Assembly (NCBI GenBank): GCA_963722385.1
Contig: CAVRKK010000002.1
Coordinates: 1,088,001 to 1,152,000 of the forward strand
DNA from: an uncultured bacterium
Lineage (GTDB): Bacteria; Babelota; Babeliae; Babelales; Babelaceae
Reading direction: 5' to 3'
Length of the DNA: 64,000 bases
Shown: one piece after another, positions 269 to 57,845 of the stretch
How positions within the stretch are numbered: position 1 is the stretch's first letter
Layout: each line of letters begins with the position of its first letter
Position numbers and translations under genes: made by a program
Notes under the pieces: model-generated
Told to the model about the DNA's origin: nothing
The model's input: the letters and a program-made list of their open reading frames with translations, nothing else
Database searches by the model: none

Positions 269-472
269 TCAAAGGTTCATAAGGGCAACAAGGTCATGTG
301 TCTTCTTAAGTGCTTGGTGTTTATAAACCAAAAAGGCTTTGAATGCCTTTTCTGCGCATTGTTGAGTATGAAACAAAATAGGACCAACAATAACTTCCGA
401 AGATGAAGCAATAATTTTAGCAATCCTTAGGTCTTGCTCAGCAAATTCAAGCCATTCTTTATGCTTTTGCAT
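269..472 (-). pseudogene. HEPN-domain toxin, C-terminally truncated
   Basis: WLEFAEQDL...FHTQQCAEKAFKAFL...KTHDL is the HEPN N-terminal signature. It stops after 67 aa. Confidence 0.75.
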
Positions 473-604
473 AAATACGCTTGCCTTTCCGTTTAATTTT
501 GTAGTGAAGAGTGCTTAAATTTTCGGAATCCTCTTCAAATTCCTCTTTGCTCAGTATAAGCAAATCTTTAGACAAGGGAAGATCCATAAGGGCTTGGTGG
601 CCTT
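459..604 (-). pseudogene. Minimal nucleotidyltransferase (MNT) antitoxin, C-terminal fragment
   Basis: Manual translation gives HQALMDLPLSKDLLILSKEEFEED...IKRKGKRIYAKA*. It overlaps the HEPN start as in MNT-HEPN pairs, and its 5' half is replaced by the toxin locus. Confidence 0.65.
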
Positions 605-615
605 GAAAGAAGCAA

Positions 616-1863
616 ATGAATAAGAATTCATTCTTAACATTTATACTCGCTATAGCTTTTTTGTTTACGTTGCCGCTAAAGCCAGGATTGGATGAGAACC
701 AAGACGACGGTTTTCCTTATTGGACATTAGTGCAGACAGACAAAGGCGATAAGAAACTTTGCTTTTTAAAAATGAGTGATAAGCTGATTTCCCTGGTTGA
801 TGGCAGCTGTGCCCCAGCCGAGGTTATTAAGGCAGAGATATCTGAAGAGATTCGAGATTTATATGCTGTGTATATAGAAGATGAAGTTCTTCTTTGTGGA
901 GGAGCTACACGGTTCTTTGTAATTGAGAAAAACAATTGGGTCAAAGCTATTGATCTGCGCGATGGTGATCATTTAGTCAGTAATAAAGATAATAAGCCAC
1001 AGCAGGTTGTGTGTAAAGGATGCCAAATAACATGCGTAGGGCATCTGCTTTATAGGATGCAGATTGATAACCCTACCCATTGCTACTTTGTTGGTGAAAA
1101 CGCTGTTTTGGTTCATAACTATCTTCCTGCGGTTATTTTTAACGCAACTGTGGCATTTGGTGAAGGTGCTGCCGCAGGAGGCTCTAGTGGTAGCTACTTT
1201 GGTCCTTTAGGTATTAGTGTTGGCGTCATATTTGGTGGCATTCTCGGTCTAGGTATAGGCAAGTGGTGCTCAGATTCAGATCATCGAGCGAGAGAAGATG
1301 AGTATCTTCGAGATTCTGATAAACTCAACTTTGAATCTTTCCAAGCAAAGTATAAAGGTGCCTCGGTTGGTGCAAAACGGTGTAAATATGATGTTAGGCT
1401 AGGCATGGTATGCGATTTGCCGCAGGAAGATAGTTCTACATCCTGGTATGAGAACCCTGAAGCTTCGAGCAAATCAAAGCAGCCGAAAGAAGATTTGAAG
1501 CATCAAGCGAGTGCTGCTACTGGTGGACCTGATGATCCCAAAGATCCTCAAAATAGGCAAAGCCAAAGCACTACAGCAAAGCCGCCGAAGGACGATGGAA
1601 ACGAGAGTATTGAGAGCATTAAAAGAGGTATAAGAAGTTCCGAAAAAAGAATCAAGGAACACGAAGAAAAGCTTGAAAAATATAAGAAGAATCCTGATGC
1701 AGAAGATCATCTGGGAAAACTGAAAAAAGCACGAAATTCTCAAGAAAGACAAAGCATAATTGATACTAAAATAAAGAAAATAGAAACAGAACTTAGAACC
1801 TTCAGAAACAATATAGAGAAAGACAAAATAAGGTTGCGCAAAAGAGGCGTAGAATGGAGCTAA
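616..1863 (+). CDS. Polymorphic toxin A: signal peptide, pretoxin Hint-like domain, Gly-rich hydrophobic helix, alpha-helical C-terminal toxin tip
   Basis: N-terminal hydrophobic leader. Hint start GFPYWTLVQTDKG and end THCYFVGENAVLVHN. GxxxG segment follows. The C-terminus differs from paralogue 4281-5407, and an overlapping downstream gene follows. Confidence 0.8.
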   Translation: MNKNSFLTFILAIAFLFTLPLKPGLDENQDDGFPYWTLVQTDKGDKKLCFLKMSDKLISLVDGSCAPAEVIKAEISEEIRDLYAVYIEDEVLLCGGATRFFVIEKNNWVKAIDLRDGDHLVSNKDNKPQQVVCKGCQITCVGHLLYRMQIDNPTHCYFVGENAVLVHNYLPAVIFNATVAFGEGAAAGGSSGSYFGPLGISVGVIFGGILGLGIGKWCSDSDHRAREDEYLRDSDKLNFESFQAKYKGASVGAKRCKYDVRLGMVCDLPQEDSSTSWYENPEASSKSKQPKEDLKHQASAATGGPDDPKDPQNRQSQSTTAKPPKDDGNESIESIKRGIRSSEKRIKEHEEKLEKYKKNPDAEDHLGKLKKARNSQERQSIIDTKIKKIETELRTFRNNIEKDKIRLRKRGVEWS

Positions 1864-2510
1864 CGGTTCAAGAGCTTAGTCAATCGTTTGATGTGGTAAT
1901 AAGTTATTTTGATAAACAAAACATCAAAGACATTTCCTTCCCGAATGATGATTATTATCCTCAAGTATTACGTGAAGATTTAAACTTTAGTAATCCTAAT
2001 TTCTTAAGATGCCCTCAACGAGTAACAGGCTCCCTCTACGACGATTTGGTAATCTGGAAAAATACTCTGAATGAGGGTGAGGATGCGGTATATGGGGTAA
2101 GTGGAGTGCTTATAAGTAACTTTGGTGGTATTTTAAGAGCTTTCGGTCAAGTATCAGATAAACTTGATAATCCTTCTCCCATTAGAAATGTTGTGCCTCC
2201 GGGGTATCCCAAGGAGCCACCGCCCAAATTAACCATACATGAGCTTCAAAAAATCTTTAACCTCGTAGTAAGGTGGCTTAAAATGCGACATAATTCACCT
2301 GATATTTCTTTTGAAGACCCCCGCTACATTAAGATTGCCCTCAAGGATGAATATTTGGGTATGGAGTGCCCACCTTATACGATAGGCTCTTTAGATGATT
2401 GCATAAAAACCTGGAAAGAAATTTTGAACAATAAGGCTGAACCATCAGCGTTTGCCATTGAGCAGCTTGGTGATCTATTGATTGCTTTTGGTGAAGAAAT
2501 AGATAAATGA
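1854..2510 (+). CDS. Putative immunity protein 1 (two tandem ~100-aa domains)
   Basis: Overlaps the toxin stop. Acidic. Internal repeat LTxxEL...GSLxD...GxxLxAFG. Confidence 0.7.
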   Translation: MELTVQELSQSFDVVISYFDKQNIKDISFPNDDYYPQVLREDLNFSNPNFLRCPQRVTGSLYDDLVIWKNTLNEGEDAVYGVSGVLISNFGGILRAFGQVSDKLDNPSPIRNVVPPGYPKEPPPKLTIHELQKIFNLVVRWLKMRHNSPDISFEDPRYIKIALKDEYLGMECPPYTIGSLDDCIKTWKEILNNKAEPSAFAIEQLGDLLIAFGEEIDK

Positions 2511-3187
2511 AGTTAATTCTTGATGAGCTTGATAAAATATTTAATATAGTGATAAAGAATTTTAATCAACGGGGCATCAAAAAAATCTCTTTTTTTAGTG
2601 AGGATTATTACCCCTTAGTTAAGCGTCAAGATTTAGATTTTCTTGTTGATAAACCTCTATGCTTAAAAAAATATCCATCCTATGGGCTAGGCTCGTTGGA
2701 TTGGAATTTTGAAGTCTGGAAAGGTATGTTGAGTGATAAGGATGCTGTATGGGGAATGTCATCAGGAATCCAGATAGAAGATCTTGGTGGCATTTTGACA
2801 GCTTTTGGTCAAATATCAGATAAACTCAGTAATCCCGATCCTATTAAAAATATTCTACCTGAGGGATATCCCAAGGAAAAGCCACCAGTATTAACCATTT
2901 ATGAGTTGCAAAAAATCTTTGATCTTGTGATTAGGTTTTTAAAAATGGACCATTATTCAGAAATATCTTTTGAAGATCCTCGCTACATTAAGATTGCTCT
3001 CAAAAACGAATATTTAGGCATAGAGTGCCCTCCTTATACTATCGGTTCCTTAAATGATTGCATAAAAACATGGAAAGATATCCTAACTACGCATTCAGCA
3101 CCAACTGCACTTGCTATTGAGCAGCTTGGCGATTTGTTAACAGCTTTTGGTGAAGAAATCGGGCTGTCTCCAATTGGGAAAAGTTGA
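2507..3187 (+). CDS. Putative immunity protein 2 (paralogue)
   Basis: ATGA overlap with the previous gene. Shares ISFEDPRYIKIALK..YLG.ECPPYTIGSL. Confidence 0.7.
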   Translation: MKLILDELDKIFNIVIKNFNQRGIKKISFFSEDYYPLVKRQDLDFLVDKPLCLKKYPSYGLGSLDWNFEVWKGMLSDKDAVWGMSSGIQIEDLGGILTAFGQISDKLSNPDPIKNILPEGYPKEKPPVLTIYELQKIFDLVIRFLKMDHYSEISFEDPRYIKIALKNEYLGIECPPYTIGSLNDCIKTWKDILTTHSAPTALAIEQLGDLLTAFGEEIGLSPIGKS

Positions 3188-3217
3188 CAGAAATCCTGAA
3201 GGCCTATGACAAGCTAA

Positions 3218-3328
3218 CCAAGAAAGTACTTTCCCTTCCCTAGAATTGAAAAACTAATGACAGAAATTAAAAGCCATCGGGCTAGAGCAAAAGAATTTCA
3301 AGATATATTGTTGAAAAGAGGCAAGTAA
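3218..3328 (+). pseudogene. Orphan toxin C-terminal tip fragment
   Basis: RIEKLMTEIKSHRARAKEFQDILLKRGK* aligns with the toxin A end KIKKIETELRTFRNNIEKDKIRLRKRG. Its TAA overlaps the ATG of immunity 3 (TAATG). Confidence 0.55.
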
Positions 3329-3969
3329 TGAAGTTAACGCTTCATGAACTTATCAAGATATTTGAAATAGTAATACAGTATTTCAATCAACAGGGTGTTA
3401 AAAAAATTTCTTTTGTTGCCGAAGATTATTACCCCCAAGTATTACGTAAAGATTTAGACTTCGATAATCCTGATTTCTTAAAATGTCCCCATTTTCTTCT
3501 AGGCTCTTTAGATTGGAACTTTGAGGTCTGGAAAGGCATTTTAAAGGAAAAGGAGGAAGGAGTATATGAAATATCTGGGGGGATTATAGATTATCTTGGG
3601 GGTATTTTAACTGCTTTTGGTCAAGTATCAGATAAACTTGATAATCCTACTTTTATTAAAAATATCCCATTTGAAGGACAACGACCTCAACTAACTCTAG
3701 ATGAGCTACAAAAAATATTCGATTTAACAATTCAAGCGATTAAGCGGTAGTATAATCCCGAGATATCTTTTGAAGATCCTCGCTACATTAAGGTTGCCCT
3801 TAAGGATGAATATATAGACATGGAGTGCCCTCCCTATACCATAGAGTCCTTAGATGACTGTATCAAAGCCTGGAAAGAAATTTTGAGCGGTAAGGCTGAA
3901 CCATCTGCGCTTGCCATCGAACAGCTCGGTGATCTATTGACTGCTTTTGGTGAAGAAATAGAGAGGTAA
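3328..3969 (+). pseudogene. Putative immunity protein 3 with an in-frame TAG
   Basis: TAG at 3748-3750. The same frame continues YNPEISFEDPRYIKVALK...AFGEEIER* to 3969. Confidence 0.75.
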
Positions 3970-4079
3970 ACAACTCCTCTCTAAAGTGGGAAGCTTTATA
4001 GTCAGCTAAAAAAACTGCTACATTCGGACAATCTACAGTGCGCGTTGGAGCATCGGCCGATACTCCAATTCTACGGATG

Positions 4080-4150
4080 TAAGGAAAATAGAAACAAGGT
4101 TTAGAACTTCAGAAACAATATAGAGAAAGACAAGATTAAGATTGTCGCAA
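4080..4150 (+). repeat. Decayed copy of the toxin A 3' end (~1772-1841)
   Basis: gaaaatagaaaca...ttagaac..ttcagaaacaatatagagaaagacaa is shared with 1776-1826. Confidence 0.75.
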
Positions 4151-4280
4151 TTTTTTGATGCTAGAGCAAGTCGAAAAAGCCTTCACATAAAAGATAGATA
4201 TGGTAGTATCATAACTCCCAAAGATTGAAGAGTAGTGTAAGCAAGAGGACTGGACAAAACGCGCATAAAGAAAGAAGTCA

Positions 4281-5407
4281 ATGAATAAGAATTCATTCTT
4301 AACATTTTTTCTCGCTATAGCTTTTTTGTTTACGTTGTCGCTAAAGCCAGGATTGGATGAGAACCAAGACGACGGTTTTCCTTATTGGACACTGGTGCAG
4401 ACGGACAAAGGCGATAAGAAACTTTGCTTTTTAAAAATGAGTGATAAGCTGATCTCCCTGGTTGATGGCAGCTGTGCCCCAGCCGAGGTTATTAAGGCAG
4501 AGATATCTGAAGAGATACGAGATTTATATGCTGTGTATATAGAAGATGAAGTTCTTCTTTGTGGAGGAGCTACACGGTTCTTTGTAATTGAGAAAAACAA
4601 TTGGGTCAAAGCTGTTGATCTGCGCGATGGTGATCATTTAGTAAGCAATAAAGACAATAAGCCACAGCAGGTTGTATGTAGAGGATGCCAAGTAACCTGC
4701 ATAGGCATCTTCTGTATAGGATGCAGATTGATAACCCCACCCGTTGCTACTTTGTTGGTGAAAACGCTGTTTTGGTTCATAACCATCTTCCTGCCGTCAT
4801 TTTTAGCGCGAGTGTGGCATTCGGTGAAGGTGCCGTCGCGGGAGGCTCCAGTGGTAGCTACTTTGGTCCTGTCGGTATTAGTGTTGGTGTCTTATTTGGT
4901 GGCATTCTCGGTATAGGTATAGGTAAGTGGTGCTCAGATTCGGAAGGCCGAGCAAGAGAAGATGAATATTTAAGAGACTTGGATAACCTTGACATCGACT
5001 CCTTCAGAGCTAAGTACAAGGGTAGTGCTGGCTCACGTACTAACAAGCCTGAAAAACGCCCATGCGATCCTTTCAATCCAAGACCTGGGGATGATTGTTA
5101 TTATGTTGATGCACCCTATCACCATTTTAACAGTGTCGGCAATCAGTATGAGGGTAAAAGTAGGGCACCAAGAGATGGGCAGGAGGCTTTATGGAATTCT
5201 GTAAGGGTAAAAGCGAACAAGCCTCGCCGAGTAGGAATCAGCCAGGGAGAGTTTGTTGTTCTTGATTATACTTGTCATGATGGTAATGGAAATTGCCAAT
5301 TCCATGGTCATGTAAGAGAATGGGACGGGCTAGACCAAAATATGAAAAACGCGCTACAGGACAAAGGCTTGGTTAACAAAAGTGGGAAGATACTTAAAAA
5401 ATGGTAA
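4281..5407 (+). pseudogene. Polymorphic toxin B: same N-terminus as A, putative BECR-type RNase tip, 1-nt frameshift
   Basis: Near-identical to toxin A up to AKYKG. GGG is reduced to GG at 4704-4705. The tip reads YH...KSRAP.DGQEAL..S......RRVG...EFVV.D.T...FHGHVR.W. Confidence 0.75.
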
Positions 5408-6102
5408 GCGCGATTTTTCGCTTTAATTTTAATGAGCAACGATTCATCGAGTTTCTTTTTCGATGCACGTTGGATGAAATTTTTAGGTTTCAAGAAGTAA
5501 CTGTTACTTTTAAGGACGTATCTGACGCAAGTTATCTGCTTTATACTAATGATTTCATAATTGATGCTTTGATGGACTTATATAATGGCCTTAAGCGCGC
5601 TGTAGAGCATAACTTAGAGCTTGATACCTCTATTATTCCTAATTCTGAAAAGCACGATATTGGTTATCTATGGAGTATATATTGCCATAAACATTGTACA
5701 GATGACTTTGATCATAAAAACATTGAAAACTCAATTAATAAGGGGCTCACGGGAGAAAATCGTTTGATTTTTACTGGAACAGGTGAAGAGAGAAGATGGG
5801 TTGGGTTGCGTTACCATGTTTGGAGCTCTAATGAAGGCCTATGCGATACATGGCTATATAATAAAAACGGGTCAATTTTCTTAGAGGTCACTCCTTCCTA
5901 CAAATGGCATGCTATTGATCCAAAAGAAGGTGAAGAATTCTTCAGTTATAGTGATTTCATGAAAAATTATAAACCCTATGTTATAGCTCAACTGGACCAA
6001 CAAAATGCAGAGGAGTGGCTTAAACAGATTAACTGCCTTTTCGATATTATTAAGCGCAACGACCCAAAATATATAGGTTGCCCTCAAGAGAGAATGCCAT
6101 AA
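5401..6102 (+). CDS. Putative immunity protein for toxin B
   Basis: Starts inside the toxin B stop region (ATGGTAA). Unrelated to immunity 1-3. Confidence 0.65.
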   Translation: MVSAIFRFNFNEQRFIEFLFRCTLDEIFRFQEVTVTFKDVSDASYLLYTNDFIIDALMDLYNGLKRAVEHNLELDTSIIPNSEKHDIGYLWSIYCHKHCTDDFDHKNIENSINKGLTGENRLIFTGTGEERRWVGLRYHVWSSNEGLCDTWLYNKNGSIFLEVTPSYKWHAIDPKEGEEFFSYSDFMKNYKPYVIAQLDQQNAEEWLKQINCLFDIIKRNDPKYIGCPQERMP

Positions 6103-6120
6103 CATTCGTGCGGGCTAGAC

Positions 6121-6163
6121 CAAAAAAAGCGGCAAGCTGTTTTATAGCTTGCCACTTTTTTTG
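6121..6163. terminator. Bidirectional intrinsic terminator
   Basis: caaaaaaag-c-ggcaagct pairs with agcttgcc-a-ctttttttg. Confidence 0.7.
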
Positions 6164-6604: not shown

Positions 6605-7973
6605 ATTGTGGTAAAGGGTACTGGGCACGATTTTCTTGGTAAGTCCAATGCTGGCCCACATTCACTACTGGTCTGGACGCATCTTATGCGCGACGTTACG
6701 ATATATGAAGCTTTTATTCCTGCCGGGGTGCCGACTTTAAAAATGGGCGTGCCTGCGGTAACTATTCAAGCTGGTGCGCGATGGGCTGACGTTTACCAGA
6801 AGGTGACGGTTGAAGGCCGACGCTATGTACAAGGTGGTGGCTGTACATCGGTAGGAGCTGCGGGAGGCTTTTTGCAGAGAGGCGGGTTTGGCAGTTTTTC
6901 AAGAAAGTACGGTCTTGCTGCAGCTAGTTTGCTTGAGGCAGAAGTTGTTATTGCAAACGGTGAAGTTCTTATTGCTAACGAATATCAGAATGCAGATCTT
7001 TTTTGGGCTCTTAAGGGTGGAGGCGGCGGCACCTTTGGTATTGTTTCCAAAGTTACTTTGCAAACGTATGAGCTGCCAAATTATTTTGGTGCTGTTGAGG
7101 GTACTATTACTGCCCGTACCGATGAAGCATTTGAATCTCTTATTAAATATTTTATAAACTTTTACTGTAAAAGTTTACATAATGAGCACTGGGGCGGCGA
7201 ACAGGTTATGATCAAACCTGATAATTCGCTTTCTCTATGTTTAGTATTTCAGGGATTAAGTAATGAAGAGGCTATAAAAGTTTGGCTGCCTTTTAAGAGC
7301 TGGCTAGAAGAACAGTCAGAGCTTTATACTTTTACTTTGGGTTCGATTGCTGTTCCTGCGCGTAAATTCTGGGACTATGATTATTGGATACAAAATTACC
7401 CCGATTCCATTAAGCTTCACCGGGAGGGAAAAAAGAATATGCTCTACTGGGCGGGAGACCAAAAACTATTTTTAGCCTACTGGTATACCATGAAATCCCG
7501 TTGGATTCCGCTATCATTTTTTTTCGCAAGATGAATCCAAAGCATGTGCAAAAATTTTATTTGAAGCTTCACGTTATTGTGGATTTAGGTTGCAGTTTAA
7601 TAAAGCTTTAGCGGGTGCCGAAACAGAAGCTGTGGAGCGGTCTCGAAATACTTCTATTAATCCAATAGTTTTTGATTCAGCGGCATTAATATTATTTGAA
7701 GAGTATAAAGAAAATATTTCCCCTGTAAAGTACGATGATGAAATAGATATTGAAAAAGCTCTAGAGCAAATTAGGAAGGCTGATGTTGCTTTCAAAATGA
7801 TTACTGATGCCACGCCAAACTCAGGAAGCTATTCGAACGAAGCAGATTATTTTCAAGAGTCGTGGCAGCACAATTTTTGGGGAAAATGCTATCCCCAATT
7901 ACTTAGGATCAAACAAAAATATGACCCAGAAGGGCTTTTTAAATGTCATCATTGTGTCGGAAGCGAAATATAA
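6605..7973 (+). pseudogene. FAD-linked oxidase (BBE-like), 5'-truncated and frameshifted
   Basis: VKGTGHDFLGKS, LFWALKGGGGGTFG and the BBE tail YSNEADY...WG..YP.L..IK.KYDP. Frameshift in the T8 run at 7517-7524. Confidence 0.8.
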
Positions 7974-15400: not shown

Positions 15401-15436
15401 TAAATGAGTTGGCGCCTGCTAACAAAAGGGGGGAAT

Positions 15437-16237
15437 ATGAAGACGTCGTGGAAGGGATCATTAACGTTTGGTCTGGTAGACATACAAATTGAGCTGTATT
15501 CAGCCATCCAACCCCATTCTATTGGCTTTAAGTTATTGCATGCCAAATGCCATACCCCCATTAGTTACCTTCGATGGTGCTCCCATTGTAAGCAAGAGGT
15601 TGCCTGGGATGAAATTGAGAAGGGTATTCAGCTTAAAGATGGCACCTACTTTATTATAACTCCTGAAAATTTAAAGAAATTACGACCAAGGAAGACTGAA
15701 AATATTGCAATTGTAGAATTTGTCGATGCTCAGGCGGTAGATCCTGTCCTTTATGATAAGCATTATTACGTCATGCCTGCCAAGGCTCCCTATCATGCAT
15801 TTTTTTTGTTTGCGGCGGCGCTTGCTGATGTAAGCAAGATAGCAATAGGGCAATTTGTCATGCGTGACAAGCAGTATGTCTGCGCCATACGGCCGTATAG
15901 AAACATTATGCTTTTAACGATGCTTAATTATGGTTATGAGGTAAAAAAATTAGCCAAGATGGATGAGTTAGAGGCGCCAAAATTAGATACAAAAGAACTC
16001 AAGTTGGCTGAGATGCTTATGAGCAAGCTCTATCATAAGAAGTTTGATATAGAGCAGTATAAAGATACTTTTGCACTTGAGCTCGTAAAGAAGATTACTG
16101 AGCTTAAAAAAGGCGTTGCCATACCTGAAAAAGAAAAAGTAGTGGAAAAGCCGAAGCCGGTTTCGCTTATCAAGGCGCTTGAAGCGAGCTTAAGCCAGCT
16201 TGAAGAACCTAAGGCGAAAAAGTCAGCACGTGCTTGA
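15437..16237 (+). CDS. ku: Ku NHEJ DNA end-binding protein
   Basis: WKGSLTFGLV.I.I.LYSA. Strong RBS before ATG 15437. LIKALEASL tail. Confidence 0.93.
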   Translation: MKTSWKGSLTFGLVDIQIELYSAIQPHSIGFKLLHAKCHTPISYLRWCSHCKQEVAWDEIEKGIQLKDGTYFIITPENLKKLRPRKTENIAIVEFVDAQAVDPVLYDKHYYVMPAKAPYHAFFLFAAALADVSKIAIGQFVMRDKQYVCAIRPYRNIMLLTMLNYGYEVKKLAKMDELEAPKLDTKELKLAEMLMSKLYHKKFDIEQYKDTFALELVKKITELKKGVAIPEKEKVVEKPKPVSLIKALEASLSQLEEPKAKKSARA

Positions 16238-16247
16238 GAATAAGGAG

Positions 16248-16712
16248 ATGATGATGGATATCATGAGCAAAGAGCAAAGAGAAGCCTGCGATGCCTGCAT
16301 GAGGGCCTGTACAAGGTGCCGTGATATCGGTGAAAAAATAATCGGCAGCAATGCCAAGGGGGGAACGCTTGCAAGCGCTGAAGAGTATCTTGATTCCTGT
16401 CATGCCTGTATAGCTGCTTGTACGGCGCATATTAAGCATTTACAGGAGTATATAAAAAAGGCCACCGACCCGCATGAGGCAGCAAAAGCTCAAGAGTGTG
16501 TACAGGCTTGCCAGAAGTGTATCGCTGCGTGCGAAGAGTGTGTTCGCGTAATTGAATCAACTGAGCCAACAATTCCCATTCTTGAATCGGGTTATGGCAA
16601 GTCAGCGGTTCATGCATGCTTTATTGCGCTACAAGCGTGCGAAGCATGTATTAAAACATGCAAAAAGATGCTTGAAGGACAGCCGCCGCTCACCATGCCG
16701 CCCGTATGTTGA
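16248..16712 (+). CDS. Cys-rich four-helix-bundle copper storage-like protein (Csp/DUF326)
   Basis: Repeated CxxCxxxC helices and an AAGGAG RBS. Confidence 0.7.
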   Translation: MMMDIMSKEQREACDACMRACTRCRDIGEKIIGSNAKGGTLASAEEYLDSCHACIAACTAHIKHLQEYIKKATDPHEAAKAQECVQACQKCIAACEECVRVIESTEPTIPILESGYGKSAVHACFIALQACEACIKTCKKMLEGQPPLTMPPVC

Positions 16713-16734
16713 GATAGATAAATTGATATAAAAA

Positions 16735-16762
16735 AAATCAGGGACTATCAAGTCCCTGATTT
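16735..16762. terminator. Intrinsic terminator between convergent genes
   Basis: aaatcagggact-atca-agtccctgattt. Confidence 0.7.
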
Positions 16763-16784
16763 AAGACGCTTTGCCAATGTACTT

Positions 16785-17546
16785 TTAGGTAGGAATCTGT
16801 GCTTGCTCGTGTTCGAGCGCGCCTTCTTTTTCAGTACCGGTCTCTTGTTCGAGAAGTAATTTTATGAAGAAACTAGCAGCATCGTTGAGTTTGGCGGATA
16901 AAGCTTCAGATTGTGCAACATAAGGAGCCTTTGCTTCTTCTGCTTCTTTTTTTGCTTGGTCATAAGGTTTACCAGCATCGATGACTTGCTTTATGAGAGC
17001 ATAATATTTCGCGCTGCCGGCAACGCTCAAACAGTGCCTAGCTTTTGCCAAACGCCCATCTTCCTCGTAAATTTCTGCAAGGGCAGAGGCTCTCTCACCG
17101 GCATTTGTTGCCTTAACATCAATATCTTCGCATTTATTTGGATCGATCTCAAAAATGTTAAGTAATTTGCTGACAAGCTTGCTTATAGTGTAGCGAGCTT
17201 CTACTTTTTGGAAAAGGGCGAGGGTTTTTTCAAGTGCACTACGAATATCTTCTAAGCGGTTTTTAGATTTTTCATCTCCCTTTTCAGCCGCATTTTCGAG
17301 GCATCTGACAGCCTTGCCGAGCCGAGTTAGTTCTAAGTAATGGTTAGCAAGGTCATATTGTGCTTCGGGCTTTTCATGGGCCCAGCCTGCGTCGCATAAA
17401 TTTGGTTGCTGTTTGCTCATTTGCCTGAGATAGGTAATGGCGGTAGCATAGGCAAGAGCATCAATAGAACTATACTTTGTTGGCGCGCTCAAGAGGGAGC
17501 TGGTAAGCCCCGCCAAGCCTAGGATAAGTGCGTTTTTGAGATTCAT
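16785..17546 (-). CDS. Secreted protein with Sel1/TPR-like repeats
   Basis: Signal peptide, AQYDLA.HY.......KA..CL..AA..G, and a second related repeat. Confidence 0.65.
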   Translation of the reverse strand: MNLKNALILGLAGLTSSLLSAPTKYSSIDALAYATAITYLRQMSKQQPNLCDAGWAHEKPEAQYDLANHYLELTRLGKAVRCLENAAEKGDEKSKNRLEDIRSALEKTLALFQKVEARYTISKLVSKLLNIFEIDPNKCEDIDVKATNAGERASALAEIYEEDGRLAKARHCLSVAGSAKYYALIKQVIDAGKPYDQAKKEAEEAKAPYVAQSEALSAKLNDAASFFIKLLLEQETGTEKEGALEHEQAQIPT

Positions 17547-17655
17547 GGTAAACTCCTGATAAAATATGGGTAATAGTAACTCTATGATCTAGTATAAACT
17601 ATATATCCAAAAAAGATCAATATTTTTCAATAGTATTAAAGTTAATTGCTAATAA

Positions 17656-18954
17656 TTAAATAATTATGGTGAGCAATTCGTGCCAGTTAGTAGTAAAGCA
17701 AGCTGATTTTTTGGCCTGGTGCATATTCCAAGGTCTTTTGAAGCCCTCGCTGGCAAATAAGAGTCTATTCCTTCCCCATTTATTATTGACGTTGTCGAGG
17801 GTACTCATAAAATCGTCATATTTTTTTCTTGTATCTTTAAGTGGGACGAATGTGCTCATTTGTAAACAATCCCGCGATACGAAATCTGCTATGATGACGC
17901 CCACTTTTTTATACGTTAAGCCAGGCTTAAAAATCTGCTTGAGGCAGTGGTGAGCAGCATTGACGAGGTCGGGTGTATAATCTGTTGCCAGCGGTAATTG
18001 GCAGTGGGTTGATGCAAAGTAATTTTTAGGATCATGATACTGATTGGTTAAGGCAAATACGGTTATATGCTGGGCAAGTGATTGTTGGGAGCGCAGTTTT
18101 GCTGCAGCGCAGGCAACATAATGAGCGAGTGCCTCTTTGGCATATGATAAGTCAGTTACTTTCTGGCCAAATGACCGTGATACCGTGATTGACTGCTTTG
18201 GCTCAGGGCAATCCTGGAGTGATAGGCATGGTTGTCCTCGTATTTCGAGCAAAGTTTTATGACCAACAATAGTGAGGTGCTTGCGAATCCATTTTTCATC
18301 AGCGTACTTAAAGTCACAGGCGCTCAAAATTTTATTGGTTTGTAATAATTTGGCATAGCGATAGCCGATGCCCCATACATCCCCAATATCAATTGATGAC
18401 AAAATCGTATCAATGGTAGGGTGATCCGTTATATCAAAAGCTCCTTTGTATTGAGGATTTTTCTTAGCGAGCCTATTGGCAATTTTGGCAAGCGTCTTGG
18501 TAGGGCCGATGCCGATAGATACGGGAATGCCGGTATGTTGTTGTACGATTGTTCTAAGAAAGTGTGCATAGCTAAGATAGTAATTATTATCTTTCTGAGA
18601 AATGCCAAGAATGGGGAAATGCGTGGGTGCGAAAAGAAATGCTTCGTCAACCGAATAGATTTCGATATCGGCGGCATGGAGGGCTAATGTTTGCATAACA
18701 CGCTGTGACATGTCACCATAGAGTGCAAAATTTGCCGAGTAAACGAGCACCTTATGCTTTTTCAGGAAGCTTTCCCATTCAAAGGTGGGTGCACCCATGG
18801 GGATACCAAGGGCTTTGGCTTCATTCGAGCGAGCGATGATACAGGCGTCATTGCTGCCAAGCACGATGACCGGCTTGTTGTGGAGCGTCGGGTTAAAAAC
18901 GCGTTCACAGGAGACGTAAAAGTTATTGCAGTCGACGAGGAAAAAGCGCTTCAT
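17656..18954 (-). CDS. umuC: Y-family DNA polymerase V catalytic subunit
   Basis: VDCNNFYVSCERVF, YSVDEAF, PTKTLAK.AN, C-terminal S..FTT.W.EL. Confidence 0.93.
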   Translation of the reverse strand: MKRFFLVDCNNFYVSCERVFNPTLHNKPVIVLGSNDACIIARSNEAKALGIPMGAPTFEWESFLKKHKVLVYSANFALYGDMSQRVMQTLALHAADIEIYSVDEAFLFAPTHFPILGISQKDNNYYLSYAHFLRTIVQQHTGIPVSIGIGPTKTLAKIANRLAKKNPQYKGAFDITDHPTIDTILSSIDIGDVWGIGYRYAKLLQTNKILSACDFKYADEKWIRKHLTIVGHKTLLEIRGQPCLSLQDCPEPKQSITVSRSFGQKVTDLSYAKEALAHYVACAAAKLRSQQSLAQHITVFALTNQYHDPKNYFASTHCQLPLATDYTPDLVNAAHHCLKQIFKPGLTYKKVGVIIADFVSRDCLQMSTFVPLKDTRKKYDDFMSTLDNVNNKWGRNRLLFASEGFKRPWNMHQAKKSACFTTNWHELLTIII

Positions 18955-18960
18955 GGTTGC

Positions 18961-19410
18961 TTATACCTGATGAATAACGTAGGTAACGACTCCCCAGACT
19001 TCAAAGTCCATAGCCTCGGTGATTTCAATAGGCTTGTATTCATCGCTGTCGGGCATGAGGTAGAGTTTGTCTGCTTCGCGTTTGATGCGCTTAACGGTCA
19101 ATTCATCATTAATACGCGCGATGACGATCCTGTTGTTTAAAACTGACAGAGACCGATCAACGACTAATATATCATTTGATAGGATGCCCGCCTTGACCAT
19201 CGAGTCACCCTTAACGCGTATGAAGAAGGTAGAGGTGGGGTGGCTTATGAGCAGCTCATTAAGGTCGAGCGATTTATCGATAAAGTTTTCAGCAGACGAG
19301 GGAAATCCGGCGGCGACGCACCCCTCAAGCAAGGGTATAAGCAATTTTTTTACGTGCTCAGGGTAGGTAAGGAGCTCAATTTCGTCAAAGGTTTGCTTGC
19401 TTTTTGTCAT
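18961..19410 (-). CDS. umuD: DNA polymerase V autoproteolytic subunit
   Basis: AGFPS cleavage site, GDSM serine, TVKR lysine. Confidence 0.93.
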   Translation of the reverse strand: MTKSKQTFDEIELLTYPEHVKKLLIPLLEGCVAAGFPSSAENFIDKSLDLNELLISHPTSTFFIRVKGDSMVKAGILSNDILVVDRSLSVLNNRIVIARINDELTVKRIKREADKLYLMPDSDEYKPIEITEAMDFEVWGVVTYVIHQV

Positions 19411-19628
19411 TTCACCCTTGTTAATTAGTTTTTAATTATAACTTATAAGTAATATATAATTAGTATAAATATTATGTGCTTAAAGTGCAAACTTGCTATT
19501 TTAATTGCCGATTTGAATCGCCTGCCCAGCTGGGGCGACTACGCGTCGAGCGGCAGAAGCCAGCTTCTGCACTTGTTGCTTTTGCTGTTGTTGTTTTACG
19601 GCTTTATTTTTGGCATGTGTGAATGCCA

Positions 19629-19686
19629 TAACCATGCGGGGCGCATGATCATGGCTCTTGCAATTCTCCTAACGGAGAATAGAAAG
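19629..19686 (+). repeat. 58-bp conserved element, copy 1
   Basis: TAACCATGCGGGGCGCA-N14-GCAATTCTCCTAACGGAGAATAGAAAG. Second copy at 22599-22656. Confidence 0.8.
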
Positions 19687-19975
19687 TCGTGCAGTCTTGA
19701 TAGAAAACAGGGAAAACTTTCGATCAGAGACAAGCTAAAATTGGATAAGCTTCTGGCTATATTCATTGGGAAACCTTAAGCCAAAAAAGAGCCCAATCAT
19801 ATGAGGCCAGATCTATGCGGGATTAACGATAGTTACTTCCTAATCAGAGCCTCTGCTCGGGTCTATGCATCAATGTTTCTGCTATTTTGTACAAAAATGT
19901 AATAAGAGTTTATGTTTTGTACAAACTCGAGGATTTAGAACGAGTCATTGGCCGCAAGGTAGCGTATCAACCTAG

Positions 19976-21157
19976 CTATTTAGCAAGCTTATTAATAAGA
20001 TCTTTTGCACTTACAAATGAAATTGTTAGATTTTCGTATCTTCTTTTAAATGAAGTATCAATATTACTTGCAACAACAAAGTTCTCTCCCTGAGGATAAA
20101 GACGACGAAAGGCGGTAAAATTTCTTACGAGATTGCCGGCAAATGCTGGCTTGGTGAGGTCAGAATCATCTAGCAAGCTGCTAAATTTACATTCTATAGC
20201 AGCAAGCGAGCCTGTTGTTCTATAGCGAAAAACAAAATCAATTTCATGCCCACGTTTATCACGCCAATAGTTAATAGCACGTGTTTGTAATTGCCCATGT
20301 ATTTCATTCAAAATACATTGTTCCCACATGAGCCCTAAATCTTCGACGCGTAATTCAGTTCTACCTTTAGCATAGGAAACAAATCCGGTATCAAATCCAT
20401 AGACTTTCGGTGCTAGAACAATCTCATTTGATTTATGGGTAGAATATGGTCTTATCACATGAACTACAAATGTTTCTTCAAGAACATGAAGATAGTTTGA
20501 GATTGTTTGCCTAGTCACCTCACAGAGAACAGCAAATCTTGTTGCTTCAAATATGCCACCACTATATGCCAATAATAATTCTAAAAACTTTTGAAAAGAC
20601 TGCCTTTTTCCAATGCTAAACATGTCTTGAATATCTTTGGCCCAATAAGCATCAATCCACTCTCGAAACTCGGCCTCTGGTAGCTCTTGTTTTACAAAAA
20701 AAGAAGGAAACCCACCAAATAAGAGTCGGTGGCGGAGGTTGTTATCGCCAAAAAGTTTCATCTCTTGGAGTAATAATGGCGTGAGCCAGATTTCTTTTTT
20801 GCGACCCGTTAACGTATCTTTAAATTTTTTGCTTGCACCTAATGTTGACGATCCCGTCGCAATTATTTTTATGCCAGGGTAATGGTCAGCCGCCAATTTT
20901 AAAAGCTCGGAAGGATTATCAAGGCGATGTATTTCATCAAGAACAATTGCTTGACCGATATAACTTTCTAAAAAACTTTCAGGGTCGCCTAATAATTGCC
21001 GTACTCGTGGTCGCTCGCAATCAAAGTATTTAACATCGGGAAGACTTTGACAAAGGCTTGTTTTGCCAATTCGCCGAACCCCCATAAGCCAGATAATATT
21101 TTTTTGTTGCCAGCCATCATATATCATTTTTTGCCAAAAAGGACGTTGTATAAGCAT
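19976..21157 (-). CDS. AAA_14/DUF4143 ATP-binding protein
   Basis: GVRRIGKT, LDEIH, ATGSS, PKVYGFDTG, EIDFV...IECK. Confidence 0.9.
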   Translation of the reverse strand: MLIQRPFWQKMIYDGWQQKNIIWLMGVRRIGKTSLCQSLPDVKYFDCERPRVRQLLGDPESFLESYIGQAIVLDEIHRLDNPSELLKLAADHYPGIKIIATGSSTLGASKKFKDTLTGRKKEIWLTPLLLQEMKLFGDNNLRHRLLFGGFPSFFVKQELPEAEFREWIDAYWAKDIQDMFSIGKRQSFQKFLELLLAYSGGIFEATRFAVLCEVTRQTISNYLHVLEETFVVHVIRPYSTHKSNEIVLAPKVYGFDTGFVSYAKGRTELRVEDLGLMWEQCILNEIHGQLQTRAINYWRDKRGHEIDFVFRYRTTGSLAAIECKFSSLLDDSDLTKPAFAGNLVRNFTAFRRLYPQGENFVVASNIDTSFKRRYENLTISFVSAKDLINKLAK

Positions 21158-21744
21158 TAATGCTCTCCAGAGGAAGGGAAAACCAAATGTTAAGTAGTTT
21201 TAACATATATCCCGCCCAAACGCAAGATGGACTTAACACTTGGTTTTAAACCAAAGCCCTGATGGACTTCAGACTACCTTTAAAACAGCGAAGCCCGCCT
21301 AAATCGCTGGCTCGCCCTTGTGGACCGGTCATACTTCAAACACTCGGCCTCAAAGATTAAGAAAACCTAATATATCTATAGCTTCTTTGTCAGCTTCACT
21401 GCTTTGTGCGAGAACTGGCGAACGTTTCCCAAATTTTGATAGTACAAAATTTTTCATATGGGAAAAAAGTTCGGGCCGGTATCTATCCTAGATAACTTTC
21501 TGACGTTGGAAAACGGTTAAGGAAACTATTTCACCGATTCCACAAGAAAAACTCAGAATTCGGATATAGCTTCCTTATGCCGAGTAAATTATTGCATATA
21601 CCAAATATATTTGGTAGTATAATATAAAATAGGATGCCTGGGCAGATACATAAGAAGGTAATACGAGTATGGAGGCATAAGTGCCGATCAGTGGAAAAGC
21701 AATGTGCAAACTCTTCGAGCGAGTGGGCTATAAAATTGTACCTG

Positions 21745-21868
21745 GCGGAAAAGGGAGCCATGTGAGCTATCCAAACCTAAAGGTTTTGGGCTTCCTGGGC
21801 TGAACCTCCATTGAGTGTTCATAGTATCTCCACAAGCGTCAACTTTCCCTGGCTCCCAGGGTAGATTA
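21745..21868 (-). ncRNA. TnpB-type omegaRNA/reRNA scaffold plus flank-derived guide
   Basis: TACCCTGGGAGCCAGGGAAAGTTGACGCTTGTGGAGAT...CAGGAAGCCC-hairpin-TAGCTCAC matches the tnpB right-end RNA pattern. Confidence 0.65.
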
Positions 21869-21983
21869 CTCACTAATCTAACATACCTTTAACTAAATGC
21901 AAGAGCATCTTAAGCTGCTCCTTGCTTAACTTGTAAGCCCTTTTATCCAGGACCTAAAGGAACCTGGTTTTACGGGCTATTCT
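21762..21983 (-). mobile_element. Non-autonomous IS200/IS605-family element (222 bp)
   Basis: Inserted 3' of TTTAT with no TSD. Subterminal hairpins share a CCTTTAGG core. Right end is ...TAGCTCAC. No transposase. Confidence 0.85.
21875..21902 (-). promoter_or_regulatory. Putative sigma70 promoter inside the MITE, pointing at the omegaRNA
   Basis: TTGCAT-N16-TAGATT with an extended -10 TGn. Confidence 0.5.
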
Positions 21984-22039
21984 ATAAAGCTTAAAAAGAA
22001 GCATTGTGAGACAATTGTTATTCCCAACCATAAGGAGGT

Positions 22040-22206
22040 TTTTTTTCGCTTTCTTCCTCTTCTTCACCCTGCTCCAAGCGAGCTCTTTTGGGCGATTCGC
22101 TTTCTTTCTCTTTCTCGCTCCTTGGTCGTTTGCCTTCCATCCCTATACTATAAGGGGTCTGCAGAAGACCTAAGCATGCTATACTCAGTTAAAAAATTTT
22201 CTTCAT
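22040..22206 (-). pseudogene. 5' remnant of a secreted effector (signal, ME, bipartite NLS-like)
   Basis: With two frameshifts it reads MKKIF..LSIACLGLLQTPYSIG-MEGKRPR.REREKESESPKRARLEQGEEEEE. Confidence 0.55.
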
Positions 22207-22398
22207 GGCTACCTTTATTATGTATTAGCAATTGATGTAAATATTATATAATTCGAAGTATGCATAAGTCAATATTTTCGTAACGTTATAGAAGATTTCA
22301 TTTACCGTAGAATTGATTGCAACACCAAGTATTTTACATCTTGGAAAGATAAATTTTCTCTATAAAATCAAGCTCGGGCTACGGGGACGCTTACGCAG

Positions 22399-22463
22399 CC
22401 GACTTCGCCAAGGCTTCCTACTTCGCTCCTTGAGCTTTGTAGGACAGGTCGCAGGACAGGTCG
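22399..22463. repeat. Nested REP-like palindromic units
   Basis: ccgacTTCGCcaagGCT containing cctacTTCGCTccttgAGCttt-gtagg-ACAGG, with tandem GGACAGGTCG. Confidence 0.55.
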
Positions 22464-22598
22464 AAGGGCCGCCGCCTTGCACCAACACCAATATGCGTAG
22501 TAGCGCATATTGTGTCCGTAGCAGCCTTTGGTAACAAGGGCGTAAAGCGGAGGGATTTGTTACTTACGTGCCTCATCTTCTTTACGTCTATGATGCTT

Positions 22599-22656
22599 TA
22601 ACCATGCGGGGCGCAGGCTTAGAGTTACCGCAATCTTCCTGACGGAAGATAGAAAG
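22599..22656 (+). repeat. 58-bp conserved element, copy 2
   Basis: First 17 nt are identical to copy 1. The last 27 nt have 5 differences. Confidence 0.8.
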
Positions 22657-22938
22657 CGATATTAAATTTTTATCATGGAGCGTAGCCTACATGATAAATG
22701 GCGTAAGTTATCGTACGCTTTTGCGTACGATAACGATAACTACTTACCAAGCCTATAAGCATTAAGTATAACGCTTTGGGATTGCTAAGGGACGATGTCC
22801 CTTAGCCGCTAGCCGCGCAGGCGATTCAGTTTAATTCAATTCAATTTTATTCAATATTGTCTGCAAATTTAAGAATCGCCTACCCTTGAAAGAACTACGG
22901 TAAAAATACTACGCTACCCTGATATTAGAGGGTAAGTA

Positions 22939-23832
22939 ATGAGATTACATGTCATGAACGCCAAGATAGGCGATATTGGCTACCTGGATAAACAGGGTTA
23001 TATTTATGAGCCTAAATTAGATGGCTATCGCGCCCTCTGCTACGTTGACGGCGATCTAACGTTTATGTCGAGAAACGACAAAAATCTTACCGCTGCCTAT
23101 CCTGAACTACTGCACTTTCGCCAGAATATACATGCGCACTCAGCAATCTTGGATGGCGAAATCGTTGCTTATGATCAACAGGGCAACCCCAACTTCGCTT
23201 TGCTCCAGCAAGGCAAACAGGCCTCGTATGTTGTTTTTGATATCTTAATGAAGGATGACGCATCACTTATTTCAAAACCCTTATTAGAACGCAAAGCCAT
23301 TCTATCTTCAACGGTCGTTGACGGTGAAGGTATTGAAAAAATATTTTATACCACCAAAGGACATGCCCTATGGGATGAAATAAAAAAAAGGAAAATAGAA
23401 GGGGTGATGGCTAAGAAAGCCAACGGCTTGTATTACCCCGATAAAAGAATCGATACATGGGTAAAAATTAAACTGGTTAATACGATTGATTGCGTTATTA
23501 TAGGCTACCTGGCTGGCAAAAGAGTAATAGCTTCGCTCGCATTGGGGCTCTATGATGAGGTAGGAAACCTCGTATATATAGGCAATGTTGGCACTGGTTT
23601 TGCTGAACAGATGACAACAGAGCTTGCTAGCATGCTTAAAAATATCACCGTAACCAGTCTTAGCGTAAAGAACGAAGCAGTTCTTCCGAGGAATATTATA
23701 TTAGTCAAACCAGTATTGGTCGCCGAAATCAAATACCTTGAAATGACGCCTTACGGCATGTTGCGAGCATCAGTCTTCTTGAGGCTCAGGAATGACAAAT
23801 TACCCAATGAATGCACCTTTCTCAACCAATAA
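22939..23832 (+). CDS. ligD: ATP-dependent DNA ligase (LigD ligase domain only)
   Basis: YEPKLDGYR, LDGEIV, FDIL, EGVMAK, WVKIK, GNVGTGF, LRLR.DK. No POL or PE domain. Confidence 0.9.
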   Translation: MRLHVMNAKIGDIGYLDKQGYIYEPKLDGYRALCYVDGDLTFMSRNDKNLTAAYPELLHFRQNIHAHSAILDGEIVAYDQQGNPNFALLQQGKQASYVVFDILMKDDASLISKPLLERKAILSSTVVDGEGIEKIFYTTKGHALWDEIKKRKIEGVMAKKANGLYYPDKRIDTWVKIKLVNTIDCVIIGYLAGKRVIASLALGLYDEVGNLVYIGNVGTGFAEQMTTELASMLKNITVTSLSVKNEAVLPRNIILVKPVLVAEIKYLEMTPYGMLRASVFLRLRNDKLPNECTFLNQ

Positions 23833-57500: not shown

Positions 57501-57845
57501 AGCAAACACGGTCACGCTCGCTGCCTCAACAAAACCGTAATTAGCCGTCACAAGATATGAGCCATCTGGTGAAAAAGCGGCTCCATAAGGTGGTATGCGC
57601 CCTGCAGGGTCAAGATATGAGGTGCCTCGAGTTAGTATTCCTGCTGTACTATCAAATATTGACACGTCATATGCATTAGCAGTAGCAAGATATAAGCCAT
57701 TAGGCGCATAGGCTACCGAAGTAGGCCATTTGGAGACACCGGGCAAAGGATAGCTGACTTCGTTAAGAGCTTCAAGAGATAAGCTGACAACAAGCAAGAT
57801 GTTTAAAAATAAAATGTACTTTCTATTACTCTTTTTAGAAGCCAT
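54537..57845 (-). CDS. Type I membrane beta-propeller protein, 21 blades
   Basis: Signal peptide, 21 repeats, Gly-rich stalk, TM helix, tail YKYL...GSVNFG. Paralogue of 24194-26482. Confidence 0.85.
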   Translation of the reverse strand: MASKKSNRKYILFLNILLVVSLSLEALNEVSYPLPGVSKWPTSVAYAPNGLYLATANAYDVSIFDSTAGILTRGTSYLDPAGRIPPYGAAFSPDGSYLVTANYGFVEAASVTVFAVGSGGTLSGGTTYPLPSTSYFPKAMAFSPDGSLLAIANGSDDVTIFAVETGVLSKGTSYSLPIGSVFPQSIAFSPNGLYIATANYASSNVTIFTVEAGGILNSGTSYVLPAGSTFPYSVAFSPDSSYLALANNNSSDVSIFSVGAGGVLSGGTSYALPAGSSFPRSVAYEPSGSFLVTGNISSDVTVFSVGAGGALSGGTSYALPAGSTSIASVAFTADGAYLATANYTSKNVTIFSVLGGVLSGAVSYALSTGSTFPQLVLFSPNGSYLVTANASDDLTVFDVEAGGVLTGGTSYSIFSSFVRPGRALFSPNSLYLAAVNQYANSVTIWNVGSSGTLTGSAAYSLPTGSIQPNALAFSPDGSYLVTANSAISNDITVFTVGSGGVLNAGTSYSVTAVGPQALAFSPDGLYLAVAAAFDIVIFNVGAGGALSGGTLYPIPAAATQPFSMAFAPDGSYIALAGAESATVTTFTFSGGVLNAGTTYSLPSGATEPESVAISPDGSYLATANALSGNVAVFSAAAGGVLSGGTLYPLPMSSIFPESVAFSPNSSYLATANTGSSSISIFTVTGGVLNAGISYPLPQLPTSSRAPNAIAFSPDHLYLATANYGSSDVALFNVNASSATTLTLGTKKSFPLPYNLVTSSHPTSIAFSAHSPYVATGNDNSDDVTIFQLTGGQLTGPISYSLPLGSSSPAAVAFSPNDLYLAVANRGSNDVVVFNVVAGSLSGGLAYPLPSGSVEPAALAFTPDGAYLAIADYGSNDIAVAQFITGSLSFAPSTALPVGSNGPRSLLFLPVNGNSTLLLVSANSGSNDVTTFNFQAGTLSGGQSYLLPPGALTPQSIASSPNGEFIATANSDSNSFTVFTVNGGTFNASISYNLPSNSTHCVAITFAPSGSHLATANAFSNDVSVAVLVGGGNNYGGDGGSNGGDGFSSNNLNIILPTTLIGGVFGGAALLTIAGLAAFIWYKYLHKQRATLGSVNFGPAEDL

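Follow-up and report, generated by a model that had tools for sequence, protein, structure and literature searches.

The window analyzed here comprises 64,000 nucleotides (nt) of contig CAVRKK010000002.1 from the Babelaceae assembly GCA_963722385.1 (positions 1,088,001 to 1,152,000, forward strand). Near its start lies a locus with two related putative toxin genes and their partner genes, which represents a real, phylum-wide, and apparently undescribed form of polymorphic toxin system, characterized by a Hint domain that appears to cut only once. The source genome (1.6 Mb, 93% complete) contains many ankyrin and beta-propeller genes and belongs to an intracellular lineage, Ca. Babelota (Dependentiae), parasites of protists, in line with the endosymbiont context proposed in a preliminary description of the locus. 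Toxin gene 1 (616 to 1863; coordinates refer to the window, and features are on the plus strand unless stated) is intact and encodes 415 amino acids (aa). On the basis of its open reading frame (ORF), Pfam matches, and homologues, it consists of a signal peptide, a Hint domain, a hydrophobic segment, a linker, and a helical tip. The signal-peptide-like N terminus (616 to 690, approximately aa 1 to 25, with an approximate boundary) was recognized by a heuristic for the h-region and not by a dedicated predictor. The Hint domain, BIL/PT-HINT-like in its fold and catalytic columns (709 to 1119, aa 32 to 168), starts with Gly, lacks the block-B His, and ends in His-Asn. It is followed by a Gly/Ala-rich, marginally hydrophobic segment (1120 to 1269, aa 169 to 218), which would provide the new N terminus after the predicted cleavage. 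The next stretch (1270 to 1359) extends to the motif AKYKG (aa 248), 80 aa past the Hint; it closes the region shared with the second copy and contains the point at which the two copies diverge.

The second toxin gene (4281 to 5407) shares 91% nucleotide identity with the first over 755 nt, from the ribosome binding site through the AKYKG codons. At the protein level, 135 of 140 residues are identical in aa 1 to 140 and 87 of 103 in aa 146 to 248, compared with 31 of 167 past AKYKG. The claim of near-identical front ends followed by unrelated C termini was thus confirmed, but the second copy is not a single gene: relative to copy 1, it carries a one-base gap near position 4704, within the Hint, that splits it into two frames (ORFs 4281 to 4916 and 4685 to 5407). 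Since the identical gap is present in contigs with copy-2 alleles from two runs of one study, it is not merely a long-read slip, and the gene is broken in the DNA. In addition, Arg occupies the block-F His position of the copy-2 Hint. Copy 1 is therefore the live gene of the window, and copy 2 is broken with its immunity gene retained. An assembly duplication was ruled out, because many synonymous sites distinguish the copies and the alleles of both are represented in the run contigs. In one contig (run X2, record 9, corresponding to window positions 500 to 1452), alleles of copy 2, among them the one-base gap, are linked to the flank and tip of copy 1, which may reflect gene conversion or recombination in the population or collapsed repeats.

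Each toxin gene is followed by an overlapping, unrelated partner gene, as had been noted previously. Immunity gene 1a (1854 to 2510; 10-nt overlap) encodes 218 aa with two repeats of an approximately 100-aa domain and was assigned to tip 1 by linkage and by a predicted complex; immunity gene 2 (5401 to 6102; 7-nt overlap) is intact and encodes 233 aa. The additional immunity paralogues were also found: three paralogous genes lie in tandem, namely, 1a, 1b (2507 to 3187; 226 aa, 61% identical to 1a), and 1c (3328 to 3969), whose in-frame TAG (3748 to 3750) is bridged by a contig of run X1. Of the orphan tip fragments that had been reported, only short decayed remnants remain. The first (3172 to 3328), in two frames, resembles the C-terminal half of a tip-1-type toxin, albeit weakly (profile E value of 0.022 genome-wide), and its stop overlaps the start of 1c. 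The second (4080 to 4150, repeat D19) is a decayed copy of the tip 1 3' end, with 86% identity over 72 nt and indels. No intact orphan tip cassette was detected in the window, which holds such remnants and spare immunity paralogues only.

Tip 2 (5159 to 5386) is homologous to the C-terminal CdiA toxin of PDB entry 5T87 (phmmer E value of 4.5e-13), which we take to be a ribonuclease (RNase). The same tip class was found in 12 further family members, and the immunity gene 2 family occurs behind tip-2-class toxins elsewhere; the gene behind one of them (locus L093) shares 29% identity over 226 aa with immunity gene 2 (E value of 7e-25). Tip 1 (1585 to 1860) is modeled as a helical hairpin with a predicted local distance difference test (pLDDT) score of 90 and belongs to no known family: no match was obtained in Pfam, in PDB sequences, or in a fold search at an E value of 0.001, and its atlas matches were below 0.9 and unnamed. 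Alignment nevertheless identified a relative at the end of an unrelated protein, P0153, where the tip recurs behind a PT-TG domain. Immunity protein 1 had no Pfam, NCBIfam, or atlas match; its family adjoins all four tip-1 toxins (4/4) on the downstream side and is present in 13 of 261 genomes, with nine matches in this genome. The predicted complex of tip 1 and immunity 1a scored 0.94, compared with 0.57 for the best control. In a calibration, 116 of 157 solved complexes attained this mark, as did 2 of 215 mismatched pairs. Contacts agreed by at least 86% between runs, with a partner pLDDT of at least 85. These models support binding of tip 1 by immunity 1a. Immunity 1 is a tandem duplication of the approximately 100-aa domain, and single-domain forms exist at two loci (L010:2742-3035 and L117:1658-1939); in one case, the single domain is an orphan behind an unrelated toxin pair.

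To determine the distribution of the family, we built a search profile from 23 front ends. It matched 109 of the 261 genomes of the phylum at an E value of 1e-5, 79 of them at 1e-25 or better, with 298 matches in total. Loci were retrieved for the best-scoring part of these matches, resulting in 118 distinct ORFs, of which 110 have a complete Hint; these 110 members, from 61 genomes and 11 families, form a set biased toward high scores. Their median length is 366 aa, the Hint begins at a median of 26 residues into the ORF, and the mean identity among family members is approximately 30%. Ten of 30 weaker-scoring genomes were also inspected by eye; nine had the same layout and one a fragment only, and no Cys1 was seen. 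Our heuristic placed an h-region no more than 40 aa from the Hint in 100 of the 110 members and detected a lipobox-like motif in three, on which basis a lipoprotein toxin was rejected. There was no conserved upstream partner, chaperone, or export gene, as the 63 upstream same-strand ORF pieces fell into 55 clusters, the largest with three.

Beyond the phylum, a search of 1.84 billion representatives yielded 105 proteins with a Gly-start Hint among the best 150. Another phylum with small genomes had 20 matches in 19 of 301 genomes, all limited to the Hint and none reaching the hydrophobic segment, and all 11 Hints read there had Cys1. Matches in plasmids (8 records) also covered the Hint part only. 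Scans of viral and metagenome contigs, which detect close relatives only, revealed no relative of the window protein, and a word-indexed protein search returned just two relatives outside the window and none for tip 1 alone.

Several members depart from the common layout. The source genome contains four further front ends or pieces, one of them intact with a partner gene. In one paralogue (L002; G000:C2:480349-480834), the signal peptide is fused directly to the linker and a truncated tip 1; its Hint and hydrophobic segment are deleted, and there is no downstream immunity gene. Another (L003; G000:C1:67304-68278) has an intact front end and a low-complexity, Cys-containing tail with no adjoining partner gene, and is possibly a non-toxin or host-directed member. 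Three tip-less members (L016:1396-2082, L019:1441-2085, and L030:1396-2073) consist of a signal peptide, a Hint, and a Gly/Ala-rich hydrophobic tail of 60 to 75 aa; two of them precede small hydrophobic ORFs, and they resemble Hint-released bacteriocin-type peptides. At three loci of genome G167 (L168, L180, and L182), front-end genes form tandem arrays in which the next gene encodes another secreted protein instead of a small immunity protein.

The analysis of the C-terminal regions revealed the tip variation predicted in the preliminary description. Tails of at least 40 aa are present in 102 of the 107 complete ORFs and formed 26 single-linkage clusters, although some clusters are lumped and one is a frameshift artifact. 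A same-strand gene follows within -50 to +55 nt in 92 of the 102 members, a count for which no null was computed. When 70 tips were scanned, 24 matched toxin families (Ntox21, 9; Ntox37, 6; colicin E3-like, 4; Ntox35, 3; Ntox17, 1; EndoU, 1), two matched other families, and 44 matched none; two of eight representatives added a barnase-like ribonuclease and Ntox33. Colicin E3 and the Enterobacter cloacae CdiA toxin cleave 16S rRNA (PMC9086364), and Ntox21 has been equated with the E. cloacae CdiA toxin and termed a tRNase (PMC3482391). Matches among 46 scanned downstream genes included CdiI families (7), DUF6980 (4), and TPR (4).

Tips and partner genes vary together. In all 388 pairs of members with a common immunity class, the tip class was also common (388/388), compared with a mean of 52 and a maximum of 93 in shuffles, a comparison that ignores kinship. 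In nine hand-picked close pairs with different tips, the partner gene differed too. Four pairs, two of them across genomes, differ in tip and partner although their front ends are 90 to 96% identical, which shows that the putative tip/immunity pairs are exchanged by recombination past the hydrophobic segment. After removal of one frameshifted row, a tree built from 101 front ends with 28 classes required at least 55 tip changes. Hence, the features of polymorphic toxin systems accessible at the sequence level, namely, a conserved front end with variable tips, toxin families, cognate immunity genes, and spare immunity genes, were all found, including several known antibacterial toxin/immunity families.

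We considered whether the tips are instead aimed at the protist host, chiefly at the bacterial-type ribosomes and tRNAs of its mitochondria, with immunity proteins that guard the parasite from its own product. Babelota are known only from protist hosts, which every cultured member infects (PMC12172432); one isolate, which sheds vesicles, is wrapped in a host mitochondrion during replication (PMC6561590), Sec and the type II secretion system (T2SS) are the route proposed for host effectors (PMC4378268), and members without immunity genes exist. However, a host target would not favor the collection of immunity genes, and the exchange of tips, the nine immunity-1 family matches in this genome, and the intact immunity gene behind a broken toxin are a signature of interbacterial conflict. 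We therefore regard a host target as unlikely.

The presence of a Hint domain, as claimed initially, was supported by a PT-HINT match (E value of 3e-5, below the curated cutoff) and by the AlphaFold model, which matched structures of BIL domains and mini-inteins (E value of 4e-8; TM scores of 0.80 to 0.88, normalized by target length). Its catalytic columns, whose block names we assigned from the alignment, are unusual. Of the 110 complete Hints, 105 begin with Gly at position 1, 3 with Ser, 2 with Ala, and none with Cys, compared with Cys1 in 72 of 74 unselected control internal Hints from the same search. The block-B His column contains Gln in 98 and His in 8 members, but His in 82 of 82 Cys1 controls. 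The terminal His-Asn is present in 110 of 110 and the block-F His in 102. The residue after the Hint (+1) is Ser or Thr in five and Cys in none, and the column taken as F:4 is mixed, with Asp (19) and Ala (18) as the commonest residues. Toxin 1 has Thr at the block-B position and retains the block-F His. The ratio of nonsynonymous to synonymous substitution rates in the Hint was 0.06 to 0.47 in all 15 close pairs (15/15), which indicates purifying selection.

In inteins, Cys1 and the block-B Thr and His drive the N-terminal step, whereas the terminal Asn together with the block-F and penultimate His drive C-terminal cleavage (PMC4031507). Both residues for N-terminal cleavage are thus replaced and those for C-terminal cleavage kept, so that the Hint appears, from this residue pattern, to have been rebuilt to cut once. 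Splicing by the mechanisms of classes 1 to 3 is excluded because the +1 residue is not a nucleophile. Inteins of classes 2 and 3 likewise lack the N-terminal nucleophile, but they splice and require Cys+1 (both classes) and either the block-B His (class 2) or Cys F:4 (class 3) (PMC4031507); in contrast, the Babelota domains have a +1 Cys in 0 of 110 and the block-B His in 8 of 110 cases and interrupt no host gene. A mobile intein was also ruled out, given the absence of a host gene and of a +1 nucleophile. As a separate observation, four unrelated proteins (P0005, P0017, P0030, and P0046) contain four to five tandem Cys1 Hints with short linkers, several of them with signal peptides.

The loss of two classic catalytic residues could also mean that the toxins are secreted with a Hint that no longer cuts and now serves as a lineage-specific binding or anchoring domain, comparable to MafB-N or the Amoebophilus prodomains; indeed, lineage-specific N-terminal domains behind a signal peptide have been proposed as toxin anchors (PMC3482391). 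We consider this improbable, since the residues lost are those of step 1, the retained block-F His and His-Asn are those of Asn cyclization, and His-Asn is invariant despite the low mean identity within the family.

The segment behind the Hint is a second common feature. Behind His-Asn, 99 of 110 members have a hydrophobic 19-mer, compared with 5 of 74 control internal Hints; the median Gly+Ala content of the segment is 30% across the family, and the median distance from His-Asn to the C terminus is 196 aa. In toxin 1, the segment spans 50 residues, is hydrophobic with 38% Gly+Ala and two charged residues, and has a pLDDT below 50 in the model. The glycine-zipper label given to it earlier found no support in Pfam, as none of five such segments (0/5) matched at an E value of 0.01. 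On a translocon scale used without position weights, the median score of the segment was +3.1, with 1 of 110 below zero; 23 polytopic proteins from this genome scored -1.9 for their best helices, and 73 other ORFs scored +1.8 for single windows. By this measure, the segment would make a poor stop-transfer signal, in agreement with a path through Sec followed by insertion at another site.

These scores bear on the idea of a membrane-tethered toxin-antitoxin or suicide module, in which the segment would be a stop-transfer anchor, the Hint would remain periplasmic, and the tip would be held by its partner in the cytoplasm of the producer until a signal arrives. A type I membrane protein has the same order of signal peptide, domain, hydrophobic segment, basic residues, and cytoplasmic enzyme; past the segment, K+R exceed D+E in 62 of 110 members (the reverse holds in 17 of 110), and no chaperone or export gene is linked. 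Nevertheless, this module is hardly probable: the segment is a poor translocon substrate on the scale used, the tips and partners are those of exported toxins of the CdiA/Rhs type, and the exchange of tips and the surplus of immunity genes are consistent with an attack from outside.

Regarding the route across the outer membrane, the genome encodes two secretins, and it is a T2SS that has been reported to serve secretion in the phylum (PMC4776705, PMC4378268). The type VI secretion system sheath protein VipB and VirB4 were not found in the 93% complete genome, with controls detected; the search did not extend to type VII secretion (T7SS). A search for ShlB/CdiB detected none of its controls.

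The system shares features with several described ones. Like the Sec/T2SS-exported toxins MafB of Neisseria, Microscilla-N, and Amoebophilus APD1/APD2, it combines a signal peptide, a lineage-restricted front end, a variable C-terminal toxin, and a downstream immunity gene, and it encodes short unstalked proteins near 400 aa (PMC3482391). Some MafB proteins include a Hint, located between DUF1020 and the toxin (PMC4524018), whereas the Babelota front-end domain is the Hint itself, directly behind the signal peptide; there is no DUF1020 (MafB-N) match in Pfam at an E value of 1, no MafA-like upstream gene, and a lipobox in the three members noted above only. As stated in the preliminary description, the locus lacks an Rhs, CdiA, LXG, PAAR, or MafB region: Pfam and NCBIfam searches revealed no match to two-partner secretion, filamentous hemagglutinin, Rhs, LXG/WXG, or PAAR domains, and the family proteins have a median length of 366 aa. 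With the PT-HINT/BIL domains of CdiA, Rhs, and T7SS toxins (PF07591), the Babelota domain shares the fold, the profile, the terminal His-Asn, and a proposed release of the downstream part. PT-HINT has been described as always lying between pre-toxin domains and a nuclease (PMC3113570) and directly before the toxin (PMC3482391, PMC4725963). In contrast to canonical PT-HINT and A-type BIL domains, the Babelota Hint comes first, stands ahead of the hydrophobic segment and a linker, and is without Cys1 and the block-B His.

The closest working principle is that of the S8-PTS (BetaH toxins) of Gram-positive bacteria, in which a protein with a signal peptide carries a cap that is proteolyzed to free a membrane-targeting helix (PMC9424270, PMC13556192). 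Both systems have swappable RNase tips with immunity genes, and ColE3, Ntox21, Ntox35, and Ntox33 tip families are common to both. However, in the S8-PTS of monoderm bacteria, a BetaH domain and a subtilase from a gene of its own are involved, and the helix set free is cationic and amphipathic. In Babelota, which are diderm intracellular parasites, a single Hint in cis would be both cap and protease, and the segment to be released is rich in Gly and without charge. With respect to a linked S8 peptidase gene, there was no conserved upstream gene; peptidases beyond the first downstream gene were not searched for. Rickettsial CRCT/CRCA modules share the setting of interbacterial toxins and antidotes in obligate intracellular bacteria as well as a 5T87-type tip, but they are C-terminal toxin/antidote modules at recombination hotspots, and the accessible text of that study mentions no signal peptide-Hint front end (PMC9111745). 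The view that the architecture falls outside described classes therefore needs qualification: because Sec-exported unstalked toxins with a Hint are already a listed category (PMC3482391), the system varies an already known type, although this particular variant is apparently undescribed. What the preliminary description had not recognized is that the family is phylum-wide, that its Hint lacks the residues for N-terminal cleavage, and that copy 2 is broken.

Considering these data, our preferred reading, to which we assign a probability of roughly 0.62, is a Babelota-wide, unstalked, Sec-exported polymorphic toxin directed against other bacteria, in which the Hint would act as a cap that removes itself and thereby releases a segment for membrane entry together with the tip. 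The precursor would be exported by Sec and its signal peptide removed, which would leave the Hint at the mature N terminus. We propose that Cys1 and the block-B His were lost because there is nothing upstream of the Hint to cut. The machinery for Asn cyclization, which alone is retained, would cut after Asn168 and discard the Hint, which until then may cap the hydrophobic segment. Being too weakly hydrophobic, according to the computed scores, for retention by the translocon of the producer, the segment would pass, and the protein might exit through the T2SS or in outer-membrane vesicles. The freed segment would then enter the target membrane and take the tip to the cytoplasm, where the tip, judging from its families, would mostly act as an RNase on rRNA or tRNA. 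The linked downstream gene would encode a cytoplasmic protein that binds and neutralizes its own tip, as the complex prediction suggests. The targets would be kin or co-infecting microbes in the same protist, with the producer and its kin shielded by the cognate partner. Toxin-based defense inside amoebae has been raised, but not demonstrated, in the available text of PMC6520448.

Several points weigh against this reading. Cleavage, export, toxicity, and rescue are all predicted from sequence, and both window tips are candidate toxins by relatedness and linkage; 44 of the 70 scanned tips have no Pfam family match. Some inteins couple C-terminal cleavage to the earlier steps, and loss of the block-B His lowers C-terminal cleavage in class 2 inteins (PMC4031507), so the Hints might be slow or dead. 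The excess of basic residues behind the segment fits insertion into a target and an anchor in the producer membrane alike. Selection of the 110 members relied on their scores with a profile that was itself derived from members of this kind, and members without a tip or a plausible immunity gene exist (L016, L019, and L030 and the tandem members of G167). Finally, there is no evident receptor-binding domain, and the crossing of two outer membranes by a Sec substrate lacks an explanation. A bolder version, which we hold only tentatively and consider doubtful, is that the single-cut Hint, with cap and protease in one, defines a distinct delivery class, a minimal Sec substrate that crosses the membranes of the producer and then arms itself, as a free toxin able to enter membranes, inside the protist cell. 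Such a device might reach co-infecting bacteria or the bacterial-type ribosomes of mitochondria without a stalk, an injection device, or a receptor-binding domain, and in the tip-less members, this device might deliver nothing but a pore-forming peptide.

Searches of the open literature listed no paper that links Babelota names with polymorphic toxins or Hints, although subscription papers, the original BIL papers, and supplements may hold a mention. In their accessible text, the word "toxin" is absent from PMC4776705, PMC6561590, and PMC12172432, and PMC4378268 refers to toxin-antitoxin pairs only. The family is not covered in the available part of PMC13483458, and four tip-1 motifs are absent from its nine supplements, which may list accessions and not sequences. 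Babelota are widespread intracellular parasites with tiny genomes, and approximately 4 in 10 genomes of the phylum carry the family, often in multiple copies; it names candidate weapons and makes competition inside protists directly testable. The family also provides a natural lineage of Hints that appear to have been remodeled to cut at the C terminus alone, both step-1 residues having been substituted in concert; this lineage is relevant to intein chemistry and to self-cleaving tags. In addition, it supplies a collection of putative toxin tips without family assignment, each with a partner gene.

The locus ends with a hairpin resembling an intrinsic terminator (6131 to 6163; 10-pair stem and T run), but such hairpins were not more frequent than in shuffles (5 versus 4.3). 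Promoter-like sites occurred at chance level (16 versus 14.5 expected), and an Rfam scan gave no match in the locus and one tRNA elsewhere in the window. Directly past the locus (6608 to 7973), an FAD-linked oxidase gene (Pfam FAD_binding_4) is split into at least two frames, and a HEPN fragment lies upstream (269 to 472, minus strand); flanked by these, the toxin locus sits among decaying genes. Farther downstream, Ku, an ATP-dependent ligase domain of the nonhomologous end-joining type, and UmuC are clustered (15404 to 23832), an unusual repair set for a reduced intracellular genome. Two long minus-strand ORFs (24194 to 26482 and 54537 to 57845) consist of beta-propeller repeats of approximately 47 aa and supply most of the repeat families of the window.

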